Positions 5,627 through 50,694 of a stretch of 58,497 nucleotides of DNA are shown piece after piece. Both the position numbers and the translations under genes were made by a program. Every line of letters begins with the position of its first letter. Position 1 is the first letter of the stretch. Under the pieces are notes generated by a model that did not search any database, had not been told where the DNA came from, and worked only from the letters and a program-made list of their open reading frames with translations. The stretch is from Candidatus Dojkabacteria bacterium (GTDB lineage: Bacteria > Patescibacteriota > Dojkabacteria > J137). The stretch spans positions 1 to 58,497 of the forward strand of contig JANWZV010000001.1 in assembly GCA_025061805.1 (NCBI GenBank), in the 5' to 3' direction.

Positions 5627-5636
5627 ATAAATATTT
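5627..5636 (+). promoter_or_regulatory. ATAAATATTT box, 4 nt upstream of the portal ATG at 5641
   Basis: Exact 10-mer, back to back with the 5601-5610 box of the divergent gene. Confidence 0.35.
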
Positions 5637-5640
5637 GAAA

Positions 5641-8600
5641 ATGTCAAATTGGAAAAAGTATTTTCAAACTATAACTCTCGATAAGAAGATTTCAGCTTTA
5701 CAAAATCAACCAGATTCTCCTGCTTATGCAAATAAGTTTTCGTCTTATTTGCCGGAAATTTATTCTGGATCTTCCAACAGATTGGAAAGATATCAACAAT
5801 ATGATCAAATGGATCAAGATTCCGAGATAAACGCTAGTTTGGATACTATTGCAGATTTTGCTACGTCCGTGCCGGAAAACAGCAATCTTATATTTGAAAT
5901 AGTTTTCCTTGACAGTAGTTCTCCGACTCCGGTCGAAACGAACATAATAAAACAAGCATTGATAAAATGGTGCAAAATAAATAAATTTTCTTCAAGACTT
6001 TGGAGAATTTTCAGATCTACGATAAAATACGGAGATCAATTTTTCTTGAGAGATCCGGAAACTTTCGAGCTTCTTTGGATAGATCATTATAAGGTGCAAT
6101 CGGTAATAGTCAATCCGGCAAAAGGAAAGAAGCCGGAATATTATGTGATAAACGACTTAGATATAAATTTGCAAACCAAGGTCGCGACCTTGCCTAGGGA
6201 AAATGCAGTCAATATGATAAATTCCTTATATTATGTGAACAAACCACAAGGAGAACAGTTGCAACATACCTTGTATTATAATCAACCGAATGTCACTAGT
6301 TGGATCGGGAAATTCAGGGGTGTTTCCAATACTCCAAGATCTGAAATAGCAGTGAATGCCGATCATATAGTGCATTTTTCCTTAAGTGAAGGTTTGGATG
6401 CACTTTGGCCTTTCGGATCTTCTATTTTGGAAAGTGTTTTCAAGGTTTACAAACAAAAAGAGCTTTTGGAAGACGCGCTCATAATTTATAGAGTACAGAG
6501 AGCACCCGAACGAAGAGTTTTTTACATAGATGTAGGTAACATGCCTCCGCACAAAGCGATATCTTACGTAGAGAGGATAAAAAATGAAATACATCAAAGA
6601 AGAATACCTAACAAAACGGGAGGCGGTACATCGATATTGGACGCTTCTTATAATCCTCTTTGTCTTTCCTTGGATACTAAGATTCCTTTATTGAATAATA
6701 CAGAAAAAACAATTAGAGAGATAATCGACCATTATGAAAACAAAGGCGAAAATCTCTATACTTACTCAATCAATGAAAATACTTTGGAAGTTGAAGTCAG
6801 CAGGATAGTTTCGGCTAAAATCACTGGGAAAAACAAAAAACTCATGAGAATACATTTGGATAATTCGTGTTATGTTGATTGTACTCCGGATCATAGATTC
6901 ATAACCAGAGACGGCAAAGAAGTGAAAGCAGAAGAATTGACGATTGGCACCAGTCTTATGCCTTTTTATTTAAGAAAAAAAGAATTATCAAAAAATTGCA
7001 AAACGACTTATCTTCAGATTTATAATCCTTCGACAAATGAATGGAAATTTGTGCATCGATTGGTCAAGGACAATTATCCCATTAAAGATCATGTGTATAA
7101 TGAAAAATATAAGAATAAACCAAAAGAAGTCATTCATCATTTAGATTTCAATAGGTTTAATAATACCCCGGAAAATTTGGTTCTTATGAATTCTATAGAT
7201 CATTGGTTGCTCCATAGTGAAGCGGCAAAAAGTAAAGTTAATAGAGAAAAAATATCTTTGTTGAATAAAAGAAGATGGAAAGACGATAATTTCAGAAATT
7301 CTGTCATAGAAAAACAGAAAATAAGGTATTCTGAAAAAATGTTTTGTATTTTACAGAATGTTTTTTCGCAGAATTCGCAAAATCAAGAAAAGATTCTTTC
7401 TATACTGAACAAGAATAAAGAATTTATCGAGGAATTCAAGAAAATAAACAACAAGACAAAATGTGCCAACAAAGATTTTTCTGTTTTTACAAGAAGAAAT
7501 CTTATATGTTTGATAAATTGTTTCGGCTATGATAGTTGGAAAAAATTCAGAATCGAGCAAATCAAGGCAAAAAAAATAAGAAATTCGGTATTTTATCAAA
7601 ATTGTAATTTTGATGAACATACTAAAGATTTCATAAAGAATATAGTTTCTTCTTTTGATGAAGATTTTAGAATAAGGGATTTATTGGAGAAAATAAACCA
7701 AAATAAATCGTTTTTAGATTCTTGGAAAAATTCCAATAAGAAATTACATAAAAAATGTTTAGTCAAAAAAAGTTTCGATAAGTTTAATTATAAGCATCTT
7801 AGAACATTTGTCATTTCGAATGGTTATGCTAATTTTGACGAATTTAAGAAAAACGTTCTTCAGGATAGTCAATTGAACCATAAAATAACGAAAATAGAAT
7901 ATTTGGAAGGAGTGCATGATGTGGGAGATATACAGATAGATTCTCCTTCTGGTTCTCATTGGTTCGCCGTTTCTGCCGGAATATTTGTTCATAATTCTAT
8001 TTTGGAAGATTATTTCTTTCCTATAACGGCGGAAGGAAGAGGAAGCAAAGTTGAAACTTTGCCAGCCGGTGAAAATTTAGGTCAGATTGACGATTTGAGA
8101 TATTTTGATAACAAACTGAAAAGAGGTTTGAGAGTTCCTTCTTCATATCTTCCATCAGGTCCAGAAGATGGCCAGACTTCTTTCAACGATGGTAAGATAG
8201 GCAATGCTTATATTCAAGAATATAGATTTTCGAAATATGTGCAGAGGTTACAGAATTTGTTGCAACCTACCATAGATAAAGAATTTAAGTATTTTTTGAA
8301 AGTAAATGGAATAAATGTAGATACTTCTTCTTTCTATATTTGTTTCTGGCAACCGCAGAATTTCGGTAAATATAGACAACTTGAGACAGATGCGGCACAG
8401 ATACAGATATTTTCTTCACTTTCAGATGTACCTTGGTTGAGCAAAAGGTTTATAGCAAAAAGATATCTTGGATTAACTGATGACGAAATCATAGAAAATG
8501 AAAAACTCTGGTTAGAAGAGAATTCTGACACCCAGCAAGAAACTAAAAATCAAGACGAAAAAACCGACATGTTTGATAACGGCATGATGAATATGAACAC

Positions 8601-8760
8601 GAGGGACGAGGATATAATCAATAGGTTTGGAGAAGAAGATAATTTCGATGAAGAAAATGAAGAGGAAAATATCGTTGATAATACGGATAAAAATTTAGAA
8701 GATGATGAAATGAATGTTCCTGATACTCAAGAAAAGGAAAAACCTGGAGAAGACCAGTAA
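5641..8760 (+). CDS. Portal vertex protein (gp20-like) interrupted by an intein; acidic C-terminal tail
   Basis: RLERYQQYDQMDQDSEINASLDTIADFAT and, after the intein, SILEDYFFPITAEGRGSKVETLP resemble T4-type portal motifs. The track start at 5635 is TTG; the ATG at 5641 is preferred. Confidence 0.7.
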   Translation: MSNWKKYFQTITLDKKISALQNQPDSPAYANKFSSYLPEIYSGSSNRLERYQQYDQMDQDSEINASLDTIADFATSVPENSNLIFEIVFLDSSSPTPVETNIIKQALIKWCKINKFSSRLWRIFRSTIKYGDQFFLRDPETFELLWIDHYKVQSVIVNPAKGKKPEYYVINDLDINLQTKVATLPRENAVNMINSLYYVNKPQGEQLQHTLYYNQPNVTSWIGKFRGVSNTPRSEIAVNADHIVHFSLSEGLDALWPFGSSILESVFKVYKQKELLEDALIIYRVQRAPERRVFYIDVGNMPPHKAISYVERIKNEIHQRRIPNKTGGGTSILDASYNPLCLSLDTKIPLLNNTEKTIREIIDHYENKGENLYTYSINENTLEVEVSRIVSAKITGKNKKLMRIHLDNSCYVDCTPDHRFITRDGKEVKAEELTIGTSLMPFYLRKKELSKNCKTTYLQIYNPSTNEWKFVHRLVKDNYPIKDHVYNEKYKNKPKEVIHHLDFNRFNNTPENLVLMNSIDHWLLHSEAAKSKVNREKISLLNKRRWKDDNFRNSVIEKQKIRYSEKMFCILQNVFSQNSQNQEKILSILNKNKEFIEEFKKINNKTKCANKDFSVFTRRNLICLINCFGYDSWKKFRIEQIKAKKIRNSVFYQNCNFDEHTKDFIKNIVSSFDEDFRIRDLLEKINQNKSFLDSWKNSNKKLHKKCLVKKSFDKFNYKHLRTFVISNGYANFDEFKKNVLQDSQLNHKITKIEYLEGVHDVGDIQIDSPSGSHWFAVSAGIFVHNSILEDYFFPITAEGRGSKVETLPAGENLGQIDDLRYFDNKLKRGLRVPSSYLPSGPEDGQTSFNDGKIGNAYIQEYRFSKYVQRLQNLLQPTIDKEFKYFLKVNGINVDTSSFYICFWQPQNFGKYRQLETDAAQIQIFSSLSDVPWLSKRFIAKRYLGLTDDEIIENEKLWLEENSDTQQETKNQDEKTDMFDNGMMNMNTRDEDIINRFGEEDNFDEENEEENIVDNTDKNLEDDEMNVPDTQEKEKPGEDQ
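6661..7995 (+). mobile_element. Complete 445-aa intein with an HNH-type endonuclease domain, inserted in the portal gene
   Basis: It starts CLSLDTKIPLL (block A). Block B is DCTPDHRFIT. The HNH motif is VIHHLDFNRFNNTPENLVLMNSIDHWLLH. Block F is HDVGDIQIDSPSGSHWFAV and block G is IFVHN, followed by +1 Ser at 7996. It is in frame (1335 nt). Confidence 0.85.
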
Positions 8761-8827: not shown

Positions 8828-9250
8828 ATGAAAGAAATCATAAAAATAAAAGAAGATATAGAAAAAATAGAAAGAAATTCAAACAACAACTTGATTGTTA
8901 AGGATGTTTTGAAACAATTTAAAGAAAGATTGAACAAGATTTTTAACGAGTATGTTTTTTACAATTCTTATTATGAAAATGAAAGAGGCGAAACCGAATA
9001 TAGATCTTGCTACGAGTGGAGCAAAAACATAAAAAATTTTAGGTTTACCTTGGGGTTTAGTTTGAATGACAATTATTATGGTGATATAGCTTTATCTATT
9101 GATTTTATAGATGAAAACGGGAATAATCATAATATCTTTTGTAAAAAGGATAGTTTTTCAAATACTAATTCAAATTTTAGTTTTAAGATAGAAGAATTTA
9201 TAAAAATCTATAAAAATAAAGTCAAAATTCTTAAATTCTTACTAAGATAA
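8828..9250 (+). CDS. Hypothetical protein
   Basis: 140-aa ORF with an ATG start. No motif recognised. Confidence 0.6.
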   Translation: MKEIIKIKEDIEKIERNSNNNLIVKDVLKQFKERLNKIFNEYVFYNSYYENERGETEYRSCYEWSKNIKNFRFTLGFSLNDNYYGDIALSIDFIDENGNNHNIFCKKDSFSNTNSNFSFKIEEFIKIYKNKVKILKFLLR

Positions 9251-9291
9251 AAATATTAAAAAAATTTTGTTTGTTTTATATCGAAAACGAT

Positions 9292-9582
9292 TTTCGCGCT
9301 TATTGCTTTTAGTCGCCGGATACGATATGAGCAACATTCAAAAGTGACTCGCTGTCACGCTGAACTGCTTACTGCAGTCGCGGCAGCGCCAGAATATGGC
9401 GCGTCTTTTGCCCGGCGTGGTGTTGTCCACGGAACCGCAACGGTTGCAAACGTAGCCATGCAGTCAGCGCACCAATTTCAGATGCGAGCGGCATGCGTTG
9501 TTGGTGCTGAATTTTCGCAGTAAGACGCGCAGTTTTATGGCTCGATATATAACCGTTATTGTGATTAAAAGCAATATATACC
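9292..9582 (-). mobile_element. GC-rich MITE-like element, copy 1: relic of an IS1595-family 5' end (zinc ribbon only) with imperfect terminal inverted repeats
   Basis: The core is 69/120 G+C (9361-9480, hand count) against AT-rich flanks. It is colinear with 51859-52156. Inverted repeats are 9300-9314 TTATTGCTTTTAGTC versus the reverse complement of 9563-9577, ATATTGCTTTTAATC (13/15). The minus-strand peptide is given under the pseudogene feature. Confidence 0.6.
9341..9538 (-). pseudogene. Decayed N-terminal zinc-ribbon fragment of an IS1595/ISXO2-type transposase
   Basis: The minus frame reads IKLRVLLRKFSTNNACRSHLKLVR*LHGYVCNRCGSVDNTTPGKRRAIFWRCRDCSKQFSVTASHF*. ATA sits at the start position (9536-9538). 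TGA sits at the conserved Trp position (9464-9466). The stop at 9338-9340 comes right after the ribbon, and no DDE domain follows. Confidence 0.6.
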
Positions 9583-9614
9583 AAATGTTTTTATCGAAAA
9601 TAAAAAAAGATATA

Positions 9615-34081: not shown

Positions 34082-34168
34082 GCGGGAATGGCGGAACTGG
34101 CAGACGCGACAGACTCAAAATCTGTTGATCGAAAGATCGTGGGGGTTCAAGTCCCCCTTCCCGCACCA
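34082..34168 (+). tRNA. tRNA-Leu (anticodon CAA), type II with a long variable arm and an encoded CCA
   Basis: Hand-folded. Acceptor gcgggaa/ttcccgc. D stem gcg/cgc. Anticodon stem acaga/tctgt with loop ctCAAaa. Variable arm gatc-gaaa-gatc. T stem ggggg/ccccc with loop ttcaagt. The 3' end is ACCA. Confidence 0.9.
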
Positions 34169-36699: not shown

Positions 36700-39600
36700 A
36701 TGTCAGAAGAAAACAAAAAAGTAATAAATCTCTTACCATCTACTTATAAAACGAGATTTTTGGAAAATTTATTTACGAATTCTTTTGATAATCTTTTTGA
36801 TAAAGGAAATAGCGAGTTTTTGGATGGTTTTATTGGTAAGATAACAAGTTATTACGAAAAAAATTCACAAAATTATATAAAAGAAAAAGATATCAATAGG
36901 ACAATATATCAATTTGAACCGATTGTAATTAGTAAAAACGGAAATAATGAGAATTTTAGTTTGTTTTATGAATGTTTCTTGAATTCAATAAAATTGAATG
37001 GTGGCTTCATAGAAAATCAAAACAGGTTATTTGAAAATTATTATTATTCTTGGTGTCCACCTATAGATATTGATAAATTTATGAATTTCAAAGAATACTT
37101 TTGGTTAAAAGATGGCCCGACATTCAGGTATGCTGGATATAAAATACATGAATATGTATCTAATGGAACAGATACCATATATAATTTTGATTTACCTTAT
37201 ATTAATCAGAATGAAATAATTGTTACTGTCGATGATGTGTTACAAAACCTAGGAGTGGATTACGTTATTCAGAATAGATCCGTAGTTTTTAATACTTCCC
37301 CTCCCGTAGACAGTAAAATAAAAATAATATCTTACAAGATCATAGGATATGAAATTTATGTTTCTGATGGTGTCAATAAAAAATATAAAGTTCCTCTGAT
37401 ATGTAAGAAAAAAGAGGATATTATAGTTTTCATAAACAATATATTGACTACTTCTGGTTTTTCCATAGTTGAAGAAAATGGAGAATTTTATGTTATTTTC
37501 GATAATCCTGTGATAGTTGGTTCAAATATAGAAATAATAGTATATAAAATATTGAATGTATTAGAAGATATTTTGGGTAGAAAGCACATAAAGGATATAA
37601 ATGGTTATTATTATTCTTCCAATATGAAAATAGTTTTTTCTTATAATGTTTTTCCTTCCGTATATAACTCTGGAGAATGGATAATAGAAGGAGTAGGCAG
37701 AGAAATAAGGCTTGCTTTTGATGGTACTGGATCAAGCTTGACTTCTGGATGGGATTTGTTTTTATGGGATAGTATAGCGTGGGATAATGATTTGTTCGTA
37801 AATTTTTATCCTCTTTCGGCGCTTATAAAAAGCGATATACCTGAATATGAAACAATAGAAAGAACATCCTTAAATAATAATCCATGGAGTAGAACCAATA
37901 GATGGTTCCATTATGATGTTCTGACTCCAGAAGATAGAAAGAAAGCTATACAAGCTAAAAGACCTATAATTGAATTTGAAAGAGATTTGGAACTTTATAA
38001 TTATGGGAGATATTTTAGGGGATTTGTTGATTTAGTGATTAACGATATGAAGGATCCCATAAATAGTTTTCTTAATGCTTTAAATGTAAATAAAATAAAT
38101 CCATATTGCATATCCGCGATTTCAATAAATTCTCCTGGTTCAGGATATACCAATTTAGGCGGAAATGGTGAAGTTGTGTGCAATGTTGTTGGCGGTACCG
38201 GAACTGCTGCTCAAGTAAAAGTAACTTTGACATCTGGGCAAGTTACAGCCGTACAATTAGTAACAAAAGGAGAATATACGACTATACCGGTCGGTCCTGT
38301 TACTGTGGACACTCTAGTGGGTGGCTCGGGCGCTAGTTTCAATGTTGAATACAATGAAATAAATACTTCTTTTTTCATAAAATCTTTGGTTTGGCCAAAT
38401 TCTTATCTAGGAGAATCCGAAATATTTTATGGAAACATCAAAATAAAAGATGGGATGAGAATTCTCGTTTTGAATAGTAATACATCGGATAAAAATAAAG
38501 TTTTCAAGGTAAGTGGAATAGCTGGCTTGGGTTCTCCTAATTTGCTTTTGGAAACCGATGGAATATTGACCAATGGTGATCCGTTCGAGGGAGAAATTCT
38601 TTATGTAAAGGATGGAATATTCAAAGAAAATGAATTTTATTTCGATGGAATATCTTGGAATATATCTCAAATTAAAAATTTTGGTAACCCTCCTTTGTTT
38701 CAATTATATGATGCGGATCCGATCAATAACTATGGTGTGAAATTGAATGATTCCGTAAGATATCCAAATAGTGATTTCAATGGAAATAAGATATTTTCTT
38801 ATGCTGAGGGAGAAGGAAAAAAAGATAAAGTATTAAATAAGAAACTTAAATATGACAAAAATGGTGAAATTGTTTTCGTTTTTAATTTAGTGACTGATAG
38901 ATATCAATATTCAGACGGAGAGATAAAAGGGTTTTATTTTTATAATAAATTAGGAAAGACAAAAGAAAAAGACGAGTTTTACAATTCTTGGCATAGAAAA
39001 AACAAGAAAAGTAAACAAAATTATTATAATAGATTGATTTCGGATGTCGATGGAATAAAAATATTTGAAGTAAATTGGAAAATAAACAAAATAGAAGAAA
39101 TTTACATAAACGGCAAGAAAGTAAATTATACTTATTTGATTGATACAAACAAAACAATAATAAATCTACAAAATTTGTTGGAAAAAAATGATATTATAGA
39201 AATTATATCCGTGTATGATGAAGATTCAAGAAATGGAAATTTTGAAATACCGCAGAATTTATCAAAAAATCCTAACTTTGAAGAAGTTACTTTTCTTTCC
39301 AAGACTAATTATGGTATTCATTTCAATGAAAATATTCAAGAAAACTTATCGACTGTAAAATTTGTAAATCCTGGACAATATTATAGTAAAAACAAATATC
39401 GAGATAGCGAAAAAAATTGGTCTTTTGGTGAACAAATAATACAAAACGAAGAGTCTATTTTGAAAGCTTCGTTGATTTTTTCAAAAAGTGAATTGAATAT
39501 TTTTGATTCTATAGATTATTTGTCTAGAGAATATAATAGATTTTTCAATAAATTTATTCAAAAATTAAATTATTTTTATACCGAAAATATATTGAATCAA

Positions 39601-42600
39601 TTGGATCCTCCGGGAAAATGGGTAGAAGAAATACTGAAAGAACTTAATAAAAATAAAACCAACGATTTTCCTTTTTATAGATCTCTTTTTGGAGATATTA
39701 ATAATTTTATTCCTCCGTCGTTGAGTTATTTGGGAATTTTACAAACTTATTATCCTATAAAATTTATAGATACTTCCTTACAAGAACCTCTGGAATTTAT
39801 ATTATGCCACGATGGAAGTTTAATAAAATCTTTTGGAGATTTTAGGGATGATGTAATTTTGGAATTGGAGATATTTCTATACAATTCTATAGAAAGTAAA
39901 TTCAAGAACGAAAATCTTTTTGAGTTTTCTATTTTTGATGTCTTGCCGGGAAAATGGAGAAAAACAGATTATAATATGAATGAAATAAATTCTATATTAT
40001 CGAGATATTTTGAGATATGGTGTTTGCAAAATAATATTTCTTATAGAAACAATGTTACTTATTCGGCTGATAATTATTGGTCGTTCAATTTTAGAAACGC
40101 AAAATCTACTCTAGGTGATGTTTTGAATGGTTCTTGGAGAGCAATATATCATTATTATTATGATACCGATAGACCACATCTATTTCCTTGGGAAATGTTA
40201 GGTTTTTCGGAAAAACCAGGATGGTGGGATTCCGAATATGGTCCTCCTCCTTATACTTCATTGAACTTGAAACTGTGGGAGGATTTAAGAGATGGCAGAA
40301 TAAGAAATGGGCCAAGAAAAGGCATAGATAAACGATTTGCTAGACCAGAATTATTGAAGATTCTACCGGTTGATGAACTGGGGAATCTATTGAATCCATT
40401 TGAAGCAAAAATTTTCGATAATTCTGTTTTATCCAATGATTTCAGTGAAGATTGGAAATTCGGAGATTATGGTCCGGTAGAAAATGCATGGAGAAGAACA
40501 AAATTTTATAGATTTGATTTGCTGAAACTTCTTCTTCTAACTAAACCCTTAAAATCAGTAGAGTTATTTTGGGACACCAAAAACATAAAAAGAATTTACA
40601 ACGATAAAGAAAAAACGAATCAATTGGTCAATATTCTTTATAAATCTAGGCCTAAACATGAATTGTATCAAGTCTTTGGGGAAAGAAATGATGTTCTTGG
40701 CTTGCAGAATATCATAACACATTATCTTGAAAAAGATTCGAAAGATATAAAAACTTTTTATGGGGATTTTATAAGAAACTTGAATGTAAAGTTGGGTTAT
40801 AGATTTGGTAGTTTCATAAATTCCGAATTTTTATCTGTTTTTTCAGAAACATACGGATTTTTACCAAAAGAAGATATAAATGTATTTTTATACGAAAGCA
40901 TACCTTTTAAAGAAACATTTTATTCCGGAATATTAGTAAGGAACTTAGGAAACAATATTTTTCAGGTTTTTGGATATGATGTTCTTGATCCGAATTTCAA
41001 GATCATTAAAGGATCTTCTTCCGGAAGAAAAAAAGATATTTCGATATTTTTAAATAATAATATTTTACCCAAAAAATGGAATCCTAATACTGAATATAAC
41101 GTCGGCGATTACGTTTATTACGAAAATGATGCTTATAAGGCAATAAAAGCACATAAATCTTCAAAAAATTTCGAAGATGATTTGAATAAATGGAAATTGC
41201 ATTCTGATACGGTAGAAAATATATTTTTCGTTGTTAATAAAAAATTAGATGTAGAAAAAGAACAAATAACGAAATTTGGTTATGGTAGTATTATTTTTGG
41301 TATTCAAGATTTGGTTGATTTCATTTTTGATTATGAAAGATACCTTCTACGCGAAGGTTGGATTTTCGATGAATATGTATTCAACGAAGAAACCGGCGAA
41401 GGAGTTATTTTTGATTTTGAATATTCGGTTAAAGAATTGTTGAAATGGATCATTTCAGAACCCCCGGTTAATTCTATATTTGCTATTTCTCCTTTTTCTA
41501 AAAAAGCAAGATTCAAAACAGATTTCGGATATATAAAATCAATAAATGATTATCTGAAAAGTAGGTATAGCATACTCAATAGAGATGGGTCGATAGTTAA
41601 TACGGAAAATTTCATAATTTTTAGATTGAATGATTTCTTTGAAATAGAAGCAAAAGAATTAAGCGAAGTTAATAATATTTATGGGTTAAGATTATTATTA
41701 AATTCTTTTGAGCATGCTTTTTATGTAAATAACAAAACAATATTTGGTGATATAATTTTTGATCCTTTATATAATCAAAGACAAAATAGATTGAAAATTT
41801 CTACTTTCAGAACAAAGAACTGGAATGGTAGAGTTACTTCTCCTGGATTCATAATAACCGAAAATACAATAAAGCCGAATTTCGATAAATCTGCGGATAA
41901 CTTCAGAAGGTTTTTTGACTTGAATAATCAAGTCGAAGATAAGAAATTAAGAGATTATGCAAACCATAATATAGCATATCAGTCTAGATCTTATCTTAGA
42001 AATTTAATTTTAAGTGATACCAGTCAGATAGATTTTTATAGGGGTTTGATAAGACAAAAAGGTTCTAGCAATTCTATCACTAAAATATTGAGGTCTAATT
42101 ACATTTCTAATTTTGCCAATTTTAAATTCTATGAAAATTGGGCTTTCAGAATAGGAGAATTTGGAAATTATGATGAAAAAAATAAGATAGAAATAAGCTA
42201 TCCTGTAAGTTTGAAAAAGAGTGATGTTCAATATTTCAAGTTTGATATAATAAACAAGGATACGTGGAAAACTCTCATTGATATATCTACCGGAGATTAT
42301 GATATAGAAATTTATGGGGAAAAATTAAAGAAATTGGATTTGGATTCAAAAAATGATGACATAATTTACGTTTATGATTTTAAATCTAAAAAATACAAAG
42401 TACAAAATGATTCTTTGATACAACCCATAATAATAAATGGTGGTTCCAATTTCGAACCAAATAAAAATTTCTTGGTCATTTATGATACCAAATATGCAGA
42501 TAAGACTGCAAAGTTTTTACTGTCTTCTAATTCATCTGGTCAAATTTCTTCCGTTGTTCTATATGAAGAAGGAGAATATAAAAGCGTAGATACGATAGGA

Positions 42601-45600
42601 TTTTTCGATATAACAGAAAATGAATTGAAAGGAGAAAATTGGCCAAATCAAGGAAGAGATTTTGTTCTAAGAATAAAATTCATAGAAACCAATGATGAGT
42701 TTATTTCGGTAAAGAATAAGTTATGGAAAATAAGACAAGAAGAAGATTATCCATTTTATGAAGATTATGAGTCTTCTTATAAATCCGTGGACAATGTTGA
42801 TTTCAGATTCATCCCGAATGCCGGATTTGTTCTAGAAAATGAAACAAATTATTCAGATTTTTACATCAATGATATCTTAAAGCCTATTGATTTTGAAAAT
42901 TTAGAAACTTTTACGCCTGATCTTTTGAATAATGTTCCTGTTTTTAGACCCGACGAGACTTTATGGATTTATTCTTCTCCTGGCAGCAATTCTTATTTCA
43001 ATGAAAATTATTTGGGAGATTGGACTGTTGCAAGAGTAGTCGATCAAAATTTCAAAATACATGCATACTTGGAAAGCGACCCTTCATTCAATTGTCCTTT
43101 GGTTGTCAATTCCATACCAAATGATTATGTCCAATATATCGGAAACGGTTCAAATACGACATTTTTGATACCTTTTATTTTCTATAAAAACTCAGATTTG
43201 GTTGTTTTGATAAACGGAAAAATATTAGATAATACCAATTATAATATAGTAGGAAACAATATAATATTCAATACTGCTCCTACAAACAATGCCAGAATAG
43301 AAATATCTAGAAAAGGACTTTGGATATATCAAACAGATGGAAGATTTAAAGGCTGGACTCAAGTTTTTTATTCAGGAAAATTCAATTTCAACCGTTTTGT
43401 TTCTATAGGGGAAGAACTTAAAAAAGATGTCAATATTGCCGATTATGTCATAGTTGCTTCGGGAATAGAATGTTTTAGATTTGGTTCTTTGGGTCAAAAT
43501 TATGTTCCAGGTGATATTCTTACGCTTTCAGGTGGTACTCTTGCTCCTGGAGGTAATCCGGCTACATTTAGAGTTAATAACGTATATACTACTTATGTTT
43601 CCTCTGTTTCTGTATTGTCCGGCGGTTCTGGATATCCACCTAACCAAACCTTCAATAACGTCAGATTAATAGGAGGACAGGGGGCCGAGGCACTTGTAAA
43701 TGTCACTACTGATGCCTTTGGATCTGTCTCTACTGTCTCGATATCAGGCAACAATTACGGTTCATATCAAGTCAATCCTCTTGGAAATATATGTACTTTG
43801 GATTTAACTCCTGGATCCGGCGCACAGATATTGGTGACAATGCAAGCATATACTTATGCAAACACGATAACGTTAGTTAACGGTGGAACCGGTTATTCGA
43901 TAGACGATGTTCTCGAAATAGTCGAGTCTTCTTCTTATTCCCTTGAACAAATAAGAATTGCTGTAACGGAAGTAGATCAATTCGGGTCGATAACAAAATT
44001 CCAGATAGTTTCTAGGGGTCAATTTATACCTTCTACTTTTCTTCCACAACCACTGTCTACGAATGTTGTGGCTCCTCCTTTCTCTAATGGATCCGGAGCT
44101 ACTTTCAATGTCACTTATGGAAATAATCCTCACGTTTTAAGAGATATAGATATTATTTTCCCGGGAAATTATATATCTGTTTCTACTTCGGTACCATATG
44201 CTCTTACGGGCGGTTCTGGCACAGGCGCTTCTGTTTTCGTGGAAATAAAGGAAGAAGGGTTTTTGATAGGATATGAAGAAAAGGTAAAACCAGGAGATTG
44301 GTTGGTATTTATTTCCAGAAAATGGCAGAGAACAGTTCCCAATCTCACGGATTATATAGTTATCAAGGCATCTAATTTGGAATTGGAATTCTTTGATCCG
44401 AATATTTTATCCAATTTGGTTCCAATAGATTTTTATACCTTAAGAGAAATAAAATTTGATACATACAACGATGTTTTGACAAATTATGTTTTGCCCAATA
44501 ATAATTCTAAAGCGTTTGTTTTGAATCTTAATTCGTTTTTGAACAATAATCTCAATTTATGGGGAGTTTTGAGATATAATGGAACGAATTGGTTGTTAGA
44601 TAGGGCACAGAATAAAAGAGTAAGGCATGATAGATATATATCTGGATTCATTTATGATAAAAATCAAAATATTGTAATTTCGGATGTTGAATATTATGAT
44701 CCTTATAATGGAAGATTATTAAGCGACATAAGAGAAAATGTAGATATATTTTCTGATGAAGATCCTGCTATTTATGGACAAGAAAGAAATTCTTGGCTTT
44801 ATGACAAAGTTGGTACTATTTGGTGGAATCTAAAAGAATATAGAATATTGGATTATGAACAATCCGATTCTTCGTATAGAAGAAAAAATTGGGGAAAACC
44901 AGTAAAAAACAGCAAAATAGAAGTATATGAATGGATAAGAAGTGACTTAAAACCGACAGAATTCAAAAATAGGCTAGAATCTTTCACAGAAAGAGATTTG
45001 TTTCCAGGAGAACCAGTATTCGAAGACAAATTCAACGAATCTTTTGAATTTGATCCCATTTTCAATAGGAGTATCAAGTATTACTATTTCTGGGTAAGAA
45101 AAAGACAAATAGTGAACGATAAGAAAAAATTAAGTATTAAACAAATTTCAGACTTGATAAACAACCCGAATATTTCTTTAAAGCCCTGGTTTGCAGGTAT
45201 ATCCAAAGATGGAATGATAATTTATGAACCAGGAAATGTATTAAGTGATGATACGATATTTCAGATAATATATACCAAAAACGAAAAAACAAAAGATTAT
45301 AATAATCATACACAATGGGTTTTGGTTCCTGAAAAAAGCGATACTTTCGATATTCCAAAAAGGCTTCTCAACAAATTGAGAGATTCTTTATGTGGTTTTG
45401 ACGATTATGGCGAAAAGAAAGAATTGTTCGAAACAAAAAGAAAAATATTGGATAATGTGACTATTTTGAATTCTGGTTCTGGTTATAACAACGGAAATTT
45501 CATTGCTACGGTTTCAGGTGGAACATTTATTGTTCCTGCAACGCTTAGTGTAACAGTAAGTGGCGGTCAAGTTGTTTCTTGTTCCATACTTAATCCAGGA

Positions 45601-48600
45601 TTATATTTGGTTCCTCCTCCTTCTCCTGTTTCCGTGACTGGTATACCAGGGGGTTCTGGAGCTTTATTTAATGTTTTGTTTTTAGAATTAAACAATCAAT
45701 ATGACATATGGATACCAAAATTAGTTCCTGATGAAAATTTAAGCGATGTGGAAAAATATGGAAATTTAATAAGACCAAGGCAGACATGGTTCAAAAACGT
45801 TTGTAAGGCCAGAAAAGAATATGTAGAAGTCATAAATTATATTTTGGGAAAATTGAATCTTTATAAAGATAGGCCTAATTGGGATTTAGGTATCAATCAA
45901 TCCGAGCCATATCCATTTGATATAAACAATCCTTTACCGAATCAAAAAGTAGTATCAGATTCCTTCGATTTATATAATAAAATCATAACAAATCAAATAG
46001 TATTAAATGATATCATTTTGATGCTTGGTAATCAGAATACAAAAGGTTTTTGGACACTTTGGAAATATGAGCAGAGTGGTTTAAAATTATTGGATTACCA
46101 AAAATATAATACTGTTGATTTTTATGAAATCATAGATTGGTATTCGCCTGAAGTGGATAAAAACAATGTTCCGATTATAATTTATCAAGATAATTTAGAA
46201 AGAGATTCTAAAACTGATACTTCTTTGCTCAATAAAATTGTAAAAGTAGAAAATGACGGATCAAATAAATGGGCATGGTATAAATTAAAAATCAACGAAT
46301 TAAATAATTTTTATTGGGAATTGGTTGCAAGAGAAAAATCGACAATTAAATTATCATCTAAATTCTACGAAAATTGCGGAAATATATTCGGTTTGTTTTT
46401 CAACAAAAATTACAATTCTTTTATTTATGGATTAAATTGGGATGAATTCGATTGGGACACATTTGAGTGGGATCCAATAAAGATAAATGTTCAGAATTCT
46501 ATGATTGGATTCGGCAAAGAGGTAGATAAAAGGAGTGGGATTTTAGAATTAAGAATTCTATTTGAATATTTAAACAACAATGTTTTGGATTTATCAGAAA
46601 TAAATTTGATGTTTTTCACGATGGTCAGGTTTGCTCATACTGAGCATAGTTATATTGATTGGGCATTCAAGACTAGTTTAGTAGATGTAGTTGGGTTCAA
46701 TCAAGAATTAAAACAAGATGCGATTATATATTTTGATATCAGCAAGAGCTTTTTGGATTTCTTCGATGAAGCAAAACCATATCATGTTAAGATAAAGGAT
46801 TTTATAAAATCTTTTTCTTTTGTGGATATTGCTAATTTTTATGTTACTGATTTCGATAAACCCGTATTTTTCGATATCGAAACAAAGGAATATAGAGTTT
46901 TGTCTGTTTTTGACCCCAATGATATTAAAATATTCGAAAGTCCTAAAAATCCAGGATTATTTTTCAATTTCTTGTTTTTGAATTTGTTCCTTAACAATCC
47001 AAGACAATCGCAGAGTTTTATTGTTTCTAACGTAAATCAGATTGTTTTTACTCTTCCTTTGGATATAATTGATGCTTCTTTGGTGGAAGTAAAAGTCAAT
47101 AATATATTGAAAACAATAAATGTGGATTTTTATGTCTCTCAAAACAATATAATATTCTTATATCCATTGAGCATAGGAGATGTCGTGGATGTAATAGAAA
47201 GACAGATACCTAAAGGATTACAAGGATTGGTTACTTCCAAAAATATATGGAATGACTGGTATTCTAATTACCTCGATAATCCAGAGTTAATAAGAACCTT
47301 AAAAATAAAAATTCTTTTTGATAGATTGTCTTGTATAGATTCCAATACACAATTCTTCTGGGATGAATTTGATTGGGATACAATAGTTTGGGATAATGCT
47401 CAAACATTGGTAAATCCTAATATAACAGATACTGTTTTCATCAATCTAAGCAATGGTGTTCAGATTTATGATTTGTCTTCGATTGTTCAAATAGATCAAA
47501 TATTGTGGCATCCTTATAATTTTTCTGAAATATATTACATTCATAACAATAATGAATCATTACTTCAAGATGATGATTATCAATTGTTTTATTTAGATTT
47601 GTATAATTTTACTGGAAATGGAACAAATACAACTTTTTCGGTCAATACGAAACAAAATATAACACCGCCTGTAATACAGGTTTTCGTTAATGGCGTGTTG
47701 CAAAATTACGTCACTGATTATGTTTTGGTTGGCAAAAATGTTGTTTTCAATGTTCCTCCACCAAATAATTCGATTATTTTAGTAAAAATATTGCCTAGAA
47801 TTATTCTAAACTTCTCTCCTTCCACTGGATCTTCTCTAAAGATAAAAAGAACTCTTGAATCTATGGAAAGAATATTGAAATATTATATTAATAAGGAAGG
47901 AAAGAAGTCAAAAATAGAAAAAAGATTGATACCGAGATGTGATTTTTACGGAACTGTAATAGAAGGCGAAGGTTTTGTAAAAAGTTTTGATTGGGATATG
48001 TTTGATTGGGATATTCCAGGATCTTGGGATGTTTCAACTATTTCTACTCTTTATTTTAATGATTTGATTTTGAGTGGTGGACAATTTTATGATAGTTATG
48101 ATTTCACTGGTGATGGTTCTACTTTATTGTTTTCTTTGAATCCGCCTCCTTCTGTTTTACCAAATACGAATACAAATAGTATAGTTTTTATAAATGGTGT
48201 CCTACAACAACCAAACATAGATTATTCTTTCTTTGGTAATAGCATAGTTTTCACGTTGCCTCCTCCCAATAATTCCGAAATAAAAGTTATAATAGCTCCG
48301 TTCTTACCGGCAAATACCAATATTTGGGATATAGTTGTAGATGGATACGAATTTGTCTCTCCATTATACGGACCCAATCAACCGGAGGAAAGAGTGAAAA
48401 TAAAGCCAAGATCGCCTGTAATAATGAAAACATTTACCGAATATTCTTTTGGTGATTTTCCGATTGAAATAATAAGACTGGAAGGTAATGCATCATCCAA
48501 TTTCGTGGAATTCAAGACATATCCTCAATCTATTGAAAGTATAATGGTATTTTATAATGAAAATCTCATTTTACCGCCTTTGTGGAATTTAGATTATTTG

Positions 48601-50694
48601 AATAAAAGAATAAACTTTTCGTTTGTTCCTCAGAATGGAGAAAAAATAGAAGTTCTTATATTCAATTGGGCGGGCACTGCCAAGAAAATAGCACAATATT
48701 CTAATTTCGGAACTACTAGTTCTAAATCTTTCGTTTATCCATCTGTGATATCGAATGTTTTATCTTATGTTACACTAAACGGCAATTTATTGAGTAATGT
48801 TTCTTCTTCTGTGTCGTCTGTAGTCAATAATACCACATCATGGAATGTTAATTTGAATGCAACTTATACTGGTTTGATAGATATCAATTCGTTCGATATT
48901 TCCAATGGTGAACAGGTTTATTTAATGAGAAGGGACGTTTTTATTGCCAATGGCGGCGTTCAGGCATTCAATATTTCACAAAACATAAACTTAAATGGAA
49001 ATTATTCTCAACTTTTCGTTTTCAAGAACGGAAAGAAAATAAGCGGCCCTATAATGAATTTTGGTATAGGCGATGGCATAAATGATGTTTTTCCGCTTTC
49101 TTATCCGGTTATAAATCCATCGGATGTCACTGTTTTCGTGGATAATGTTCTTATGGTACAAGGCGTAGATTATGAAGTTGGCAATATACCTCCCCCGCCA
49201 CCGCCAACAAATAAAACCGCAATTCAATTTTATCCCGGATCCATTCCTTCTCCGGGACAATTGGTTAAAATCATAACCAACAAGAACTATCATTATCAAT
49301 TCTTCTCTCCGAATCAAATAATTTTCAATGATCCTAATAATTTACTACTTCCGGGCGATGAAATCGTTGTATACTCTATTTCTAATTACGGGGATTCTAG
49401 TATCAAAAAAGAATCTTTTATCGGACAGAATCCTGCCATTTATCCTTTGTTCCAAACACCAATCACACCGAATCATGTAAATGTTTATGTGAATGGAAAA
49501 GAAAAAATATTAGGTTCTGATTATCTTTTGAATAATGATGGATTAGGGTGGGATTTGTTCTTTTGGGATCTTTTCTATACTTGGGATAATTCTCAATACA
49601 ACATACTGATTTTCAAGGATTTACATGTAGAATCAATAAATTTCACAGGCGATGGCGTAACTACGAATTTCTCCTTATCTTCTTTTGTTGATTTTCCTGT
49701 AGAAAGCATAGATGATTATTTGACCGTATATGTCAATGGTATTCTTCAAGAAAATAGTGTCGATTATAATATTGTTTTCATATCTCCGAACTTTTTTGTT
49801 TCTTTCTTAACTCCACCACCAAATAATTCTGTCATAACCATAAATTCTCATGCAAAAGTGGAAGCAATAACGTGGAATGATAGAATAGCAAAAGAGCCGA
49901 TATATTTCTTATGTTTTTCTGAAACAAGCAATAAAGAAAAAAATCCAAAAGATTGGGTATATTATAGGATAGATGAAGATCAAAGAATGAATCTTAGAGT
50001 CAGTTTGTTGCCCAATAATAATATTATTCTTATAAACGGAAATAAAAATATACCCATTCAATGGAGAGATAATAATGTTATAGATCAAGGATATTCATTA
50101 GATACATTTGGTAATAAAAAATATAATCCAGGTTTGATTTTAGTAGGAGAAGAATTGATTTCTTACGAAAAATTCGATTATGATACTATAAACGATGTTT
50201 ATATTTTAGAAGATCTTGTAAGATCAAAATATCAAACAGCTTTTGGCATAGAATATAAGACCATATCTGCTTCATATGCCGGAAACGGAAATCAAACGAT
50301 TTTTGCGACTCCTTCGTCAAGCTTTTTCAAGGTTTTCGTTGAGATTATAGAATTCGAATATGATTCATATGCAAATGATTTTAAACCCAAGAAAATAAAA
50401 ACTCTTAGGGAAAATATCGATTACACTGTCGCGACAAATACCATTATATTCACCAATCCACCACCTCTGCCTCAATCTGTTTCTTATCCTGTCAATATAA
50501 TAGTGACTTGTTTGATATATGATTGGACCAATTATAATTCTAGTCATTTGGGCGGAACAGAAGTCATTGCGCTACCAGAAAAATCAAGATTTAAAGAACA
50601 ATTTACGATAAATTGGGCAGATAATAAAGGACTACAATATAATGATACTTCTTTGACGAAGTTCTTGTTAGAGAATAAGGTTTTTATCATTTAA
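36700..50694 (+). CDS. Giant (4664 aa) modular virion structural/fibre-like protein
   Basis: Uninterrupted 13,995-nt ORF. It is built from at least 10 copies of an F/Y-x-G-D/N-G...F...V.VNG......DY......I.F...P module known from phage fibre N-termini, several G-G-S-G-Y modules and five W-D-rich motifs. Confidence 0.6.
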   Translation: MSEENKKVINLLPSTYKTRFLENLFTNSFDNLFDKGNSEFLDGFIGKITSYYEKNSQNYIKEKDINRTIYQFEPIVISKNGNNENFSLFYECFLNSIKLNGGFIENQNRLFENYYYSWCPPIDIDKFMNFKEYFWLKDGPTFRYAGYKIHEYVSNGTDTIYNFDLPYINQNEIIVTVDDVLQNLGVDYVIQNRSVVFNTSPPVDSKIKIISYKIIGYEIYVSDGVNKKYKVPLICKKKEDIIVFINNILTTSGFSIVEENGEFYVIFDNPVIVGSNIEIIVYKILNVLEDILGRKHIKDINGYYYSSNMKIVFSYNVFPSVYNSGEWIIEGVGREIRLAFDGTGSSLTSGWDLFLWDSIAWDNDLFVNFYPLSALIKSDIPEYETIERTSLNNNPWSRTNRWFHYDVLTPEDRKKAIQAKRPIIEFERDLELYNYGRYFRGFVDLVINDMKDPINSFLNALNVNKINPYCISAISINSPGSGYTNLGGNGEVVCNVVGGTGTAAQVKVTLTSGQVTAVQLVTKGEYTTIPVGPVTVDTLVGGSGASFNVEYNEINTSFFIKSLVWPNSYLGESEIFYGNIKIKDGMRILVLNSNTSDKNKVFKVSGIAGLGSPNLLLETDGILTNGDPFEGEILYVKDGIFKENEFYFDGISWNISQIKNFGNPPLFQLYDADPINNYGVKLNDSVRYPNSDFNGNKIFSYAEGEGKKDKVLNKKLKYDKNGEIVFVFNLVTDRYQYSDGEIKGFYFYNKLGKTKEKDEFYNSWHRKNKKSKQNYYNRLISDVDGIKIFEVNWKINKIEEIYINGKKVNYTYLIDTNKTIINLQNLLEKNDIIEIISVYDEDSRNGNFEIPQNLSKNPNFEEVTFLSKTNYGIHFNENIQENLSTVKFVNPGQYYSKNKYRDSEKNWSFGEQIIQNEESILKASLIFSKSELNIFDSIDYLSREYNRFFNKFIQKLNYFYTENILNQLDPPGKWVEEILKELNKNKTNDFPFYRSLFGDINNFIPPSLSYLGILQTYYPIKFIDTSLQEPLEFILCHDGSLIKSFGDFRDDVILELEIFLYNSIESKFKNENLFEFSIFDVLPGKWRKTDYNMNEINSILSRYFEIWCLQNNISYRNNVTYSADNYWSFNFRNAKSTLGDVLNGSWRAIYHYYYDTDRPHLFPWEMLGFSEKPGWWDSEYGPPPYTSLNLKLWEDLRDGRIRNGPRKGIDKRFARPELLKILPVDELGNLLNPFEAKIFDNSVLSNDFSEDWKFGDYGPVENAWRRTKFYRFDLLKLLLLTKPLKSVELFWDTKNIKRIYNDKEKTNQLVNILYKSRPKHELYQVFGERNDVLGLQNIITHYLEKDSKDIKTFYGDFIRNLNVKLGYRFGSFINSEFLSVFSETYGFLPKEDINVFLYESIPFKETFYSGILVRNLGNNIFQVFGYDVLDPNFKIIKGSSSGRKKDISIFLNNNILPKKWNPNTEYNVGDYVYYENDAYKAIKAHKSSKNFEDDLNKWKLHSDTVENIFFVVNKKLDVEKEQITKFGYGSIIFGIQDLVDFIFDYERYLLREGWIFDEYVFNEETGEGVIFDFEYSVKELLKWIISEPPVNSIFAISPFSKKARFKTDFGYIKSINDYLKSRYSILNRDGSIVNTENFIIFRLNDFFEIEAKELSEVNNIYGLRLLLNSFEHAFYVNNKTIFGDIIFDPLYNQRQNRLKISTFRTKNWNGRVTSPGFIITENTIKPNFDKSADNFRRFFDLNNQVEDKKLRDYANHNIAYQSRSYLRNLILSDTSQIDFYRGLIRQKGSSNSITKILRSNYISNFANFKFYENWAFRIGEFGNYDEKNKIEISYPVSLKKSDVQYFKFDIINKDTWKTLIDISTGDYDIEIYGEKLKKLDLDSKNDDIIYVYDFKSKKYKVQNDSLIQPIIINGGSNFEPNKNFLVIYDTKYADKTAKFLLSSNSSGQISSVVLYEEGEYKSVDTIGFFDITENELKGENWPNQGRDFVLRIKFIETNDEFISVKNKLWKIRQEEDYPFYEDYESSYKSVDNVDFRFIPNAGFVLENETNYSDFYINDILKPIDFENLETFTPDLLNNVPVFRPDETLWIYSSPGSNSYFNENYLGDWTVARVVDQNFKIHAYLESDPSFNCPLVVNSIPNDYVQYIGNGSNTTFLIPFIFYKNSDLVVLINGKILDNTNYNIVGNNIIFNTAPTNNARIEISRKGLWIYQTDGRFKGWTQVFYSGKFNFNRFVSIGEELKKDVNIADYVIVASGIECFRFGSLGQNYVPGDILTLSGGTLAPGGNPATFRVNNVYTTYVSSVSVLSGGSGYPPNQTFNNVRLIGGQGAEALVNVTTDAFGSVSTVSISGNNYGSYQVNPLGNICTLDLTPGSGAQILVTMQAYTYANTITLVNGGTGYSIDDVLEIVESSSYSLEQIRIAVTEVDQFGSITKFQIVSRGQFIPSTFLPQPLSTNVVAPPFSNGSGATFNVTYGNNPHVLRDIDIIFPGNYISVSTSVPYALTGGSGTGASVFVEIKEEGFLIGYEEKVKPGDWLVFISRKWQRTVPNLTDYIVIKASNLELEFFDPNILSNLVPIDFYTLREIKFDTYNDVLTNYVLPNNNSKAFVLNLNSFLNNNLNLWGVLRYNGTNWLLDRAQNKRVRHDRYISGFIYDKNQNIVISDVEYYDPYNGRLLSDIRENVDIFSDEDPAIYGQERNSWLYDKVGTIWWNLKEYRILDYEQSDSSYRRKNWGKPVKNSKIEVYEWIRSDLKPTEFKNRLESFTERDLFPGEPVFEDKFNESFEFDPIFNRSIKYYYFWVRKRQIVNDKKKLSIKQISDLINNPNISLKPWFAGISKDGMIIYEPGNVLSDDTIFQIIYTKNEKTKDYNNHTQWVLVPEKSDTFDIPKRLLNKLRDSLCGFDDYGEKKELFETKRKILDNVTILNSGSGYNNGNFIATVSGGTFIVPATLSVTVSGGQVVSCSILNPGLYLVPPPSPVSVTGIPGGSGALFNVLFLELNNQYDIWIPKLVPDENLSDVEKYGNLIRPRQTWFKNVCKARKEYVEVINYILGKLNLYKDRPNWDLGINQSEPYPFDINNPLPNQKVVSDSFDLYNKIITNQIVLNDIILMLGNQNTKGFWTLWKYEQSGLKLLDYQKYNTVDFYEIIDWYSPEVDKNNVPIIIYQDNLERDSKTDTSLLNKIVKVENDGSNKWAWYKLKINELNNFYWELVAREKSTIKLSSKFYENCGNIFGLFFNKNYNSFIYGLNWDEFDWDTFEWDPIKINVQNSMIGFGKEVDKRSGILELRILFEYLNNNVLDLSEINLMFFTMVRFAHTEHSYIDWAFKTSLVDVVGFNQELKQDAIIYFDISKSFLDFFDEAKPYHVKIKDFIKSFSFVDIANFYVTDFDKPVFFDIETKEYRVLSVFDPNDIKIFESPKNPGLFFNFLFLNLFLNNPRQSQSFIVSNVNQIVFTLPLDIIDASLVEVKVNNILKTINVDFYVSQNNIIFLYPLSIGDVVDVIERQIPKGLQGLVTSKNIWNDWYSNYLDNPELIRTLKIKILFDRLSCIDSNTQFFWDEFDWDTIVWDNAQTLVNPNITDTVFINLSNGVQIYDLSSIVQIDQILWHPYNFSEIYYIHNNNESLLQDDDYQLFYLDLYNFTGNGTNTTFSVNTKQNITPPVIQVFVNGVLQNYVTDYVLVGKNVVFNVPPPNNSIILVKILPRIILNFSPSTGSSLKIKRTLESMERILKYYINKEGKKSKIEKRLIPRCDFYGTVIEGEGFVKSFDWDMFDWDIPGSWDVSTISTLYFNDLILSGGQFYDSYDFTGDGSTLLFSLNPPPSVLPNTNTNSIVFINGVLQQPNIDYSFFGNSIVFTLPPPNNSEIKVIIAPFLPANTNIWDIVVDGYEFVSPLYGPNQPEERVKIKPRSPVIMKTFTEYSFGDFPIEIIRLEGNASSNFVEFKTYPQSIESIMVFYNENLILPPLWNLDYLNKRINFSFVPQNGEKIEVLIFNWAGTAKKIAQYSNFGTTSSKSFVYPSVISNVLSYVTLNGNLLSNVSSSVSSVVNNTTSWNVNLNATYTGLIDINSFDISNGEQVYLMRRDVFIANGGVQAFNISQNINLNGNYSQLFVFKNGKKISGPIMNFGIGDGINDVFPLSYPVINPSDVTVFVDNVLMVQGVDYEVGNIPPPPPPTNKTAIQFYPGSIPSPGQLVKIITNKNYHYQFFSPNQIIFNDPNNLLLPGDEIVVYSISNYGDSSIKKESFIGQNPAIYPLFQTPITPNHVNVYVNGKEKILGSDYLLNNDGLGWDLFFWDLFYTWDNSQYNILIFKDLHVESINFTGDGVTTNFSLSSFVDFPVESIDDYLTVYVNGILQENSVDYNIVFISPNFFVSFLTPPPNNSVITINSHAKVEAITWNDRIAKEPIYFLCFSETSNKEKNPKDWVYYRIDEDQRMNLRVSLLPNNNIILINGNKNIPIQWRDNNVIDQGYSLDTFGNKKYNPGLILVGEELISYEKFDYDTINDVYILEDLVRSKYQTAFGIEYKTISASYAGNGNQTIFATPSSSFFKVFVEIIEFEYDSYANDFKPKKIKTLRENIDYTVATNTIIFTNPPPLPQSVSYPVNIIVTCLIYDWTNYNSSHLGGTEVIALPEKSRFKEQFTINWADNKGLQYNDTSLTKFLLENKVFII

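Follow-up and report, generated by a model that had tools for sequence, protein, structure and literature searches.

The window analysed here comprises positions 1 to 58,497 of contig JANWZV010000001.1 (GenBank assembly GCA_025061805.1), deposited under the name 'Candidatus Dojkabacteria'. It is a T4-like phage genome, with a T4-type portal, a clamp loader and an open reading frame (ORF) of 4664 amino acids (aa), and its deposition in a 'Candidatus Dojkabacteria' metagenome-assembled genome probably reflects binning by low G+C. The G+C content of the window is 28.7% overall, and its most G+C-rich 100-nt stretches lie within 9282-9565 and 51849-52141, where both islands peak at 63%. These two islands, copy A and copy B, are the subject of this text; both are derivatives of the IS1595 family of insertion sequences (IS), not functional members of it.

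An earlier reading of the letters alone (hereafter the original prediction) had counted 69 G or C among the 120 positions 9361-9480, had paired the two blocks end to end in the same orientation and had seen an imperfect inverted repeat (9300-9314 versus 9563-9577, 13/15); our recounts agree, as does BLASTN for the pairing (9292-9582 versus 51859-52156, 78.5% identity over 298 nt, E = 1e-67). The 23-mer given as the longest identical run is surpassed by one of 26 nt, TATTGTGATTAAAAGCAATATATACC, at the right end, and identity between the copies comes to 78.5-80%. Neither a BLASTN self-comparison nor a peptide search revealed a third copy in the window, at the DNA or the peptide level, and copy B is unchanged in a second assembly of the same phage (L002). 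Comparison with full-length bacterial relatives (among them L003 and L031, described below) places the copies at 9295-9582 and 51862-52156, because the target duplication of L031 abuts ends of the form GG.... and ....CG, six bases outside the TATTGC core. The homology between A and B stops at these parental termini, and the flanks of A are unrelated to those of B. The parts of the two copies are:

9295-9582, minus strand: copy A, whole relic (288 bp, 50.0% G+C), which aligns over its full length with a deletion construct made from the L003 IS, ends taken from L031 and L003; its order on the minus strand is left end, 5' leader, ribbon pseudo-codons, deletion junction, right end
9561-9582, minus strand: left terminal inverted repeat of copy A, GGTATATATTGCTTTTAATCAC, which agrees with the left end of L003, GGTAGTTATTGCTTTCAGTCAC, at 18/22 positions
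9347-9538, minus strand: transposase pseudo-codons 1-64 of copy A (zinc ribbon, PF12760), 73% DNA identity to L003 over 190 nt
9347-9356, minus strand: deletion junction of copy A, GACAGCGAGT, where one copy of the parental repeat CACGGCGGGC has survived
9295-9346, minus strand: right-end block of copy A, which corresponds to the final ~52 nt of the parent and shows 81% identity with the last 62 nt of the L003 IS
9295-9316, minus strand: right inverted repeat of copy A, within the right-end block, reading CGCGCTTATTGCTTTTAGTCGC on the plus strand
51862-52156, minus strand: copy B, whole relic (295 bp, 50.8% G+C), in the same orientation as A
52135-52156, minus strand: left terminal inverted repeat of copy B, with no difference from A
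51914-52106, minus strand: ribbon pseudo-gene of copy B, with ATG kept at 52104-52106 and 78% DNA identity to L003
51914-51923, minus strand: deletion junction of copy B, CACGATGGGT, placed as in A
51862-51883, minus strand: right terminal inverted repeat of copy B, reading CGTGCTTATTATTTTCAGTCGT on the plus strand, from alignment to L003

The right-end block is also conserved in the bacterial loci L004, L012, L014 and L031.

Read on the minus strand, both copies give the peptides claimed for them, and the proposed profile search identifies an IS1595-type zinc ribbon in each: PF12760 (Zn_ribbon_IS1595, gathering score 25.4 bits) matches copy A with 35.0 bits when TGA is read as W and copy B with 40.6 bits when a frameshift is repaired, in both cases over the whole 46-position model. 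The four cysteines and most motif residues are kept in both copies, and the TGA of copy A falls exactly at the conserved tryptophan. Decay had been described for copy A only, and there every element of it stands, i.e., ATA for ATG at 9536-9538, TGA for the conserved tryptophan at 9464-9466, a frame that ends with a stop at 9338-9340, and no DDE domain; copy B is broken too, by one extra base at 52025 (G on the plus strand) that splits the ribbon over two frames. Transposase homology ends at codon 64, with no ISXO2-like DDE domain (PF12762) following; tblastn with the DDE domain of L031 gave no match in the window, and no DDE or TnpB sequence was found there.

An exhaustive HMMER search of 1.84 billion representative proteins returned 610 matches, the best with 70% identity over residues 1-64, and the top matches are N-termini of transposases that continue into a helix-turn-helix (HTH) and the start of a DDE domain, in visibly G+C-rich DNA. 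It was this search that turned up the relatives, not a word-indexed one, in which the repaired peptide found no match and no close homologue of a short ribbon-only protein. With the IS1595 family (PF12760, PF12762; 'IS1595 family transposase' in RefSeq), the phage copies share the ribbon N-terminus and the terminal inverted repeats, which in bona fide members have the common form GG....TATTGCTTT.A.TCA, with a right end GACT.AAAGCAATAAGCGCG common to L003, L004 and L012; they differ in having neither HTH nor DDE domain, and cannot be autonomous. Presumably, the relic ends also resemble the ISNwi1 subgroup consensus of ISfinder, ggnnatTAT.

Full-length relatives and the internal deletion

What decides the matter is the existence of full-length relatives in G+C-rich Alphaproteobacteria. 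The search for them that had been proposed found elements in which both ends and the first 64 codons match at the DNA level. The contig of the best HMMER match (L003) holds an IS of 1165 bp (left end GGTAGTTATTGCTTTCAGTCAC, right end ...GTGACTGAAAGCAATAAGCGCG), which is 73-78% identical to the minus strand of the phage copies over the first 190 nt and 78-81% over the last 62 nt. From GTDB genomes 80 bacterial loci were recovered, the closest of them in Crenalkalicoccus roseus, uncultured Acetobacteraceae, Geminicoccaceae and other Alphaproteobacteria; the G+C content of the parental loci is 63-75% (six loci, whole) and 59-68% over the matched 5' region. Members of 2.2 kb (L014, L031) encode a transposase with zinc ribbon and DDE_Tnp_IS1595 domain followed immediately by TnpB, the parental domains being PF12760, PF12762 and OrfB_IS605 / TNB. 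A tnpB gene is present in 12/12 loci nearest to the phage ribbon (two of which are further contigs of the L004 element) and in none of the more distant IS1595 loci. The L003 and L004 elements are themselves partly deleted, and in L031 a clean 9-bp target duplication, TTGTTCCAT, abuts the ends. The parental elements lie, in their respective loci, at:

L014, 2459-4696
L031, 2449-4655
L012, 1-2213
L008, 2458-4586

Covarying helices occupy the 3' region of the parents, with 23 compensated pairs; shuffles give 9.0 +/- 2.1 and slid controls 2-9. The parents make up a subclade of IS1595-family elements in which one inverted-repeat pair encloses a DDE transposase, TnpB and, as a candidate guide-RNA scaffold, a covarying 3' RNA. 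Of the parental RNA the relics keep the 3' strand of helix 8 together with helices 9 and 10 (two small terminal hairpins); they have neither the tnpB gene nor the complete scaffold, next to the transposon right end, of a TnpB guide-RNA (omega RNA) module. At L003 4-585, directly upstream of the L003 IS, a second and diverged IS1595 transposase gene is represented by its N-terminal half, which covers the ribbon, the HTH and the first part of the DDE domain; the two form a nested or tandem IS arrangement in this donor-like metagenomic contig.

A 10-nt direct repeat, CACGGCGGGC, is present twice in L003 (778-787 and 1654-1663), and when L003 is joined at the two repeats the resulting 311 nt are collinear with A and B, both inverted repeats included. 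The original prediction of a foreign, G+C-rich IS1595-type relic that is non-autonomous and has lost its interior stands up to each of the checks proposed with it. The repeat pair is exact in L012 (224-235 and 2150-2161), and L008 and L004 have it too, with one or two mismatches; in more distant members (L009, L011, L013, L014, L031) the 10-12-nt match is neither held nor covarying. At its length of 10-12 nt, the repeat, GTCACGGCGGGC, is common to ribbon codons 61-65 and the 3' strand of the covarying helix near the right end, and predisposes its IS lineage to exactly the deletion seen in the phage. Because both copies share the junction, the deletion took place once, before A and B split. A contiguous short form occurs in 0/80 bacterial loci, where a nucleotide profile gives separate 5' and 3' matches, 1.17-2.2 kb apart. 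The 12-nt repeat was also considered as a self-targeting TnpB guide and rejected: it neither holds nor covaries in the more distant members listed above, and its 3' copy is explained as one strand of the covarying RNA helix.

With a probability of roughly 85%, we consider both islands to be copies of one internal-deletion derivative of an IS1595-family IS that resembles a miniature inverted-repeat transposable element (MITE), is non-coding and decays neutrally. The parent is an element of ~2.2 kb that occurs in G+C-rich Alphaproteobacteria such as Acetobacteraceae and consists of left inverted repeat, tnpA (zinc ribbon, HTH, IS1595 DDE), tnpB, structured 3' RNA and right inverted repeat. A deletion between the 10-12-nt direct repeats, which lie at ribbon codons 61-65 and immediately ahead of the right end, removed tnpB entirely, together with the remainder of tnpA and nearly the whole RNA scaffold. 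What was left are ~290 bp, comprising the left end, a leader of 44 nt, 64 codons and the final ~60 nt. The most probable route of the short form into the phage is mobilisation in trans, during infection, by a transposase of this family that the cell encoded; it would have entered an A+T-rich phage lineage once and later been copied to a second site. Since arrival, both copies have undergone mostly G/C-to-A/T changes, even over codon positions, and each has a disabling lesion of its own. At both ends of both copies the foreign DNA starts or stops within 0-3 nt of the parental termini, which argues for a transposase acting in trans rather than random capture.

Decay, insertion sites and alternative explanations

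Synonymous differences between A and B had been read as a sign of past protein-level selection, and the high G+C of both copies as one of independent acquisition or ongoing constraint; the substitutions speak against both claims. Differences fall 14/12/15 on the three codon positions, and of the codons that differ, 11 do so synonymously and 23 non-synonymously; since they are spread evenly over codon positions, they point to no protein-level constraint between the copies. With L003 as outgroup, changes specific to A comprise 23 from G/C to A/T versus 4 in the other direction, and those specific to B 17 versus 3; by codon position the lineage-specific changes are 6/6/8 in A and 4/4/3 in B. The older shared branch to the bacterial relative (7/4/15) is the only one enriched at third positions. 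Six outgroups give 16 versus 1 for A, 8 versus 1 for B and 19 versus 3 for the shared stem. The L003 deletion construct has 64.7% G+C, compared with 50% for A and B; the two copies are losing G+C and share derived A+T changes. Because the common ancestor of A and B had already shifted towards A+T, a single entry into the A+T-rich genome, then duplication, is favoured, and the pattern of change indicates that the copies drift neutrally toward the phage base composition after a single acquisition.

It is unlikely that the two copies were instead acquired independently from a diverged MITE pool in a cellular host, without duplication inside the phage. Such an origin would fit with the distance between A and B (80% identity), about that of copy B to the L003 IS (75%), with the lack of a transposase in the window and with the finding that 59.7% of MITE-positive viral sequences carry two (PMC11602168), but it has to contend with a deletion junction that is the same in A and B, with their identical, derived, A+T-rich 26-nt left end, and with the shared stem (19 versus 3 against the six G+C-rich outgroups), from which their ancestor was already A+T-shifted; no cellular short-form copy was found either.

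The look-up of empty sites in related phages that the original prediction had suggested found them at both loci. At site A, 7 nt separate the convergent genes in L007, the nearest phage relative, versus 364 nt here, the proteins of L007 being 61% (clamp loader) and 52% (neighbouring ORF) identical to those of the window. At site B, the spacers of L089, L090 and L091 measure 88, 83 and 83 nt versus 361 nt here, and L089 has the gene order seen here (giant ORF, two minus-strand ORFs, homologue of the 293-aa ORF; 52% and 42% identical). These empty-site relatives are distant, with 42-61% amino-acid identity in the flanking genes and 25-36% G+C. The neighbouring genes and flanking repeats are:

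8828-9250, plus strand: 140-aa ORF, neighbour of A, convergent with the clamp-loader gene, 52% identical to a 137-aa ORF of L007
9615-10562, minus strand: AAA+ clamp-loader (RFC-like) gene, neighbour of A
52219-53100, plus strand: 293-aa ORF, neighbour of B, divergent from the ORF at 51231-51857, with homologues in L089, L090 and L091
9272-9287, plus strand: left flanking repeat of A, TGTTTTATATCGAAAA, 7 nt from the element end
9586-9600, plus strand: right flanking repeat of A, TGTTTTTATCGAAAA, 3 nt from the element end

A 208-aa ORF (51231-51857, minus strand) has its conserved start codon 4 nt downstream of the end of copy B, so that the leader of this gene, and possibly its promoter, must lie within or beyond the relic. 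In L089 the homologue of the 208-aa ORF has ~35 nt of native A+T-rich spacer in place of the relic. Across copy B an automatic gene caller had put a 94-aa ORF in a frame unrelated to the ribbon (L002 2620-2904, equal to window 51838-52122, minus strand).

Several points weigh against reading the islands as a transposed, merely decaying short form. An abutting 8-9-bp target duplication is absent from both copies (A 6/9, P = 0.035; B 4/9). Copy A is flanked by an imperfect direct repeat of 16/15 nt, TGTTTT(A)TATCGAAAA (local alignment score 12; empirical P = 0.0008 over all positions, 0.003 over A+T-rich positions), which is longer than the 8-9-bp duplication of the family, lies offset by 7 and 3 nt in a manner that standard DDE transposition does not explain, and has no counterpart at copy B. 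The family-wide target duplication of IS1595 elements is 8 bp. The 9-bp pair of TATCGAAAA (9279-9287 and 9592-9600), which had been put forward as a possible target duplication, is present, as part of the longer repeat; unlike the duplications of this family, it does not abut the ends. Another short-form copy or a cellular counterpart was found in none of IMG/VR, JGI metagenomes, GTDB genomes and GenBank phages, in searches by exact patterns, which miss diverged copies, or by BLAST with copy A only. Thus, BLASTN of copy A in 'distant' mode gave no match in GenBank phages, nor did the exact 23-mer or the ribbon pattern give any; a pattern common to A, B, L003 and L004 found nothing in viral, genome and metagenome collections (it should match the JGI sample of L004, so that the metagenome collection evidently is without that sample), a junction-specific pattern nothing in metagenome and viral collections, and a back-translated search nothing in IMG/VR. 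With two copies in one phage only, these searches do not establish a MITE family in circulation. The closest parental element is just 72-78% identical, too distant to point to a donor or a date, and the window covers 58 kb of a contig of 116,990 nt, which look-ups of terminal proteins extended by only 2.8 kb. Finally, the plus-strand consensus fold of the copies is stabler than column shuffles (z = -3.8), and some RNA-level role is possible.

The 9-mer TATCGAAAA occurs at 10 sites in the window (9279 to 46876) versus 3.0 +/- 1.8 expected, a number that 0/100 shuffles reach. As a phage regulatory motif it was rejected; the eight sites other than those flanking relic A lie inside coding regions and share no context. 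Seven of these eight are antisense to plus-strand ORFs.

Capture of a random host fragment by illegitimate recombination, followed by segmental duplication and with no transposase involved, would agree with the missing target duplications at both copies and with the offset 16-nt repeat of copy A, which is more like repair or slippage than like an 8-9-bp staggered cut. Yet both copies are bounded within 0-3 nt of the parental IS termini, which would be unexpected for random capture or for a duplication that carries its flanks along, and the flanks of A and B are unrelated; we therefore regard such an origin as distinctly improbable.

We give still less credence to the view that the islands are functional structured RNAs or cis-regulatory elements in which selection keeps the G+C high, e.g., a bidirectional terminator at A, a leader or promoter for the ORF at 51231-51857 at B, or a TnpB guide-RNA remnant. 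Fold z-scores against shuffles range from -2.2 to -3.8 across single and consensus folds (-3.3 for A on the plus strand and -2.4 for B in single-sequence folds), a stability that is expected because the element has built-in inverted repeats. Covariation, which the original prediction named as a sign of RNA structure in place of codon-like substitution, gives no signal beyond chance: the consensus fold has 5 compensatory pairs on the plus strand (3.5 +/- 1.6 in shuffles, 59/200 of which reach 5) and 6 on the minus strand (reached by 18/200), in a pair-count test that has no power with two sequences. In favour of such a function, the pairing of a 12-bp long-range helix survives two double changes, weak terminator-like hairpins occur on both strands of copy A, copy B lies 4 nt from a start codon, and the 3' region of the parents is a real structured RNA by its 23 compensated pairs. 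However, the terminator-like hairpins of A are not in B, the predicted minimum-free-energy folds of the two copies differ, the relics keep one strand only of the main parental helix, substitution in both copies is strongly biased A+T-ward, and related phages are without any element at both sites; Rfam has no match beyond chance at any threshold (none at the gathering score, only chance-level ones in the islands at E <= 10).

A functional small zinc-ribbon protein made by recoding (UGA as Trp in A, a +1 frameshift in B), at which the retained cysteines and motif residues and the exact position of the TGA in A might hint, is close to refuted by a standard code in which ORFs of 1041 and 4664 aa run uninterrupted (table 11) and the only tRNA is Leu-CAA, by ATA for ATG in copy A, by lesions that differ between the copies, by the 23 non-synonymous versus 11 synonymous codon differences with their flat codon-position profile, and by the lack of a close homologue of a short ribbon-only protein in the protein database. 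Genetic code 4 (TGA = Trp) was likewise rejected, the long ORFs being intact under translation table 11.

Host signal and comparison with known systems

By its portal gene, the phage belongs with distant T4-like and jumbo phages, with best matches to the low-G+C jumbo phages Atu_ph07 of Agrobacterium and Phosso of Sinorhizobium. The portal ORF (5635-8760, plus strand, 1041 aa) matches other portals in two pieces over ~60% of its length, and its L007 homologue is annotated Portal_T4, Intein_splicing and again Portal_T4; because of these two observations, it probably carries an intein. The 4664-aa ORF (36700-50694, plus strand) shows a faint Phage_T7_tail and a weak CBM_5_12 hint in Pfam, and has a relative of 4665 aa in L089. 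A tRNA-Leu (CAA) at 34082-34168 (plus strand) is the only tRNA and the only Rfam match of the window, and its third-highest G+C peak (54%).

We tentatively raise the possibility, doubtful as it is, that the relic is a host-range fossil, i.e., that a T4-like phage of 28% G+C replicates, or replicated, in an alphaproteobacterium (Acetobacteraceae-like) of ~65-70% G+C that carries IS1595-TnpB elements. The transposase of such a cell would have mobilised the short form into, and then within, the phage genome, and the portal matches to low-G+C Agrobacterium and Sinorhizobium jumbo phages would fit with an alphaproteobacterial host. If true, it would be a MITE-based host link across a G+C gap of ~40 points. 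The relic is an independent but weak clue that the host is a G+C-rich alphaproteobacterium and not the binned candidate-phyla-radiation bacterium, and the best matches of the portal likewise point to alphaproteobacterial hosts.

Beyond the question of the host, the two copies offer a worked case of the birth and death of a MITE, from a microhomology-mediated deletion in an identifiable parent to viral transfer, duplication and a fall in G+C from ~65% to 50%. G+C islands in A+T-rich phages are often suspected to be structured RNAs, and the present case shows that they may be otherwise; moreover, G+C-rich relics create spurious genes in A+T-rich genomes, as with the 94-aa ORF on copy B. We regard this as an unusually well resolved case with an extreme contrast in base composition; its mechanism is not new, and it opens no new biological question.

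Among phage-borne small elements, MPME1 and MPME2 of mycobacteriophages are bounded by inverted repeats, measure ~440 bp and occupy variable sites in otherwise related phage genomes. They carry an intact small ORF and are near-identical between phages; the relics described here differ from them in being pseudogenised, diverged and derived from a bacterial IS family.

DDE-linked TnpBs, as described in PMC10691335 (Altae-Tran et al. 2023), form six branches, DDE-1 to DDE-6, bounded by inverted repeats, and the main text there names only IS630 as a DDE partner. The bacterial parents are like those systems in having tnpB directly downstream of the DDE transposase, symmetrical inverted repeats and a tnpB 3' end within ~250-300 nt of the transposon end; the phage relics differ, as tnpB is gone and the RNA region is reduced to its final ~60 nt.

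A further comparison is with prokaryotic MITEs, which are internal-deletion derivatives of insertion sequences, and among them with the MITEs of viruses (Nadal-Molero et al. 2024, PMC11602168), which were reported from 0.01% of viral genomes (0.2% in an earlier study), or 2,500 viral sequences with degenerate copies counted, and which those authors propose to use for host assignment. The view that MITE-like elements are rare in phages holds for viral genomes at large, although such elements have already been catalogued there. The relic differs from MITEs in having no abutting target duplication, two copies that have diverged (80%) and no cellular counterpart found; it exceeds the ~104-bp median of cellular MITEs (PMC11602168) and keeps 64 recognisable codons, and its G+C gap to the carrier is extreme (59-68% over the matched 5' region of the parents, 28% in the phage). 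It is nevertheless like the catalogued viral MITEs in consisting of ~290 bp with both IS ends, intact inverted repeats and no transposase, in its intergenic position with empty sites in relatives, and in being present in two copies per viral genome.

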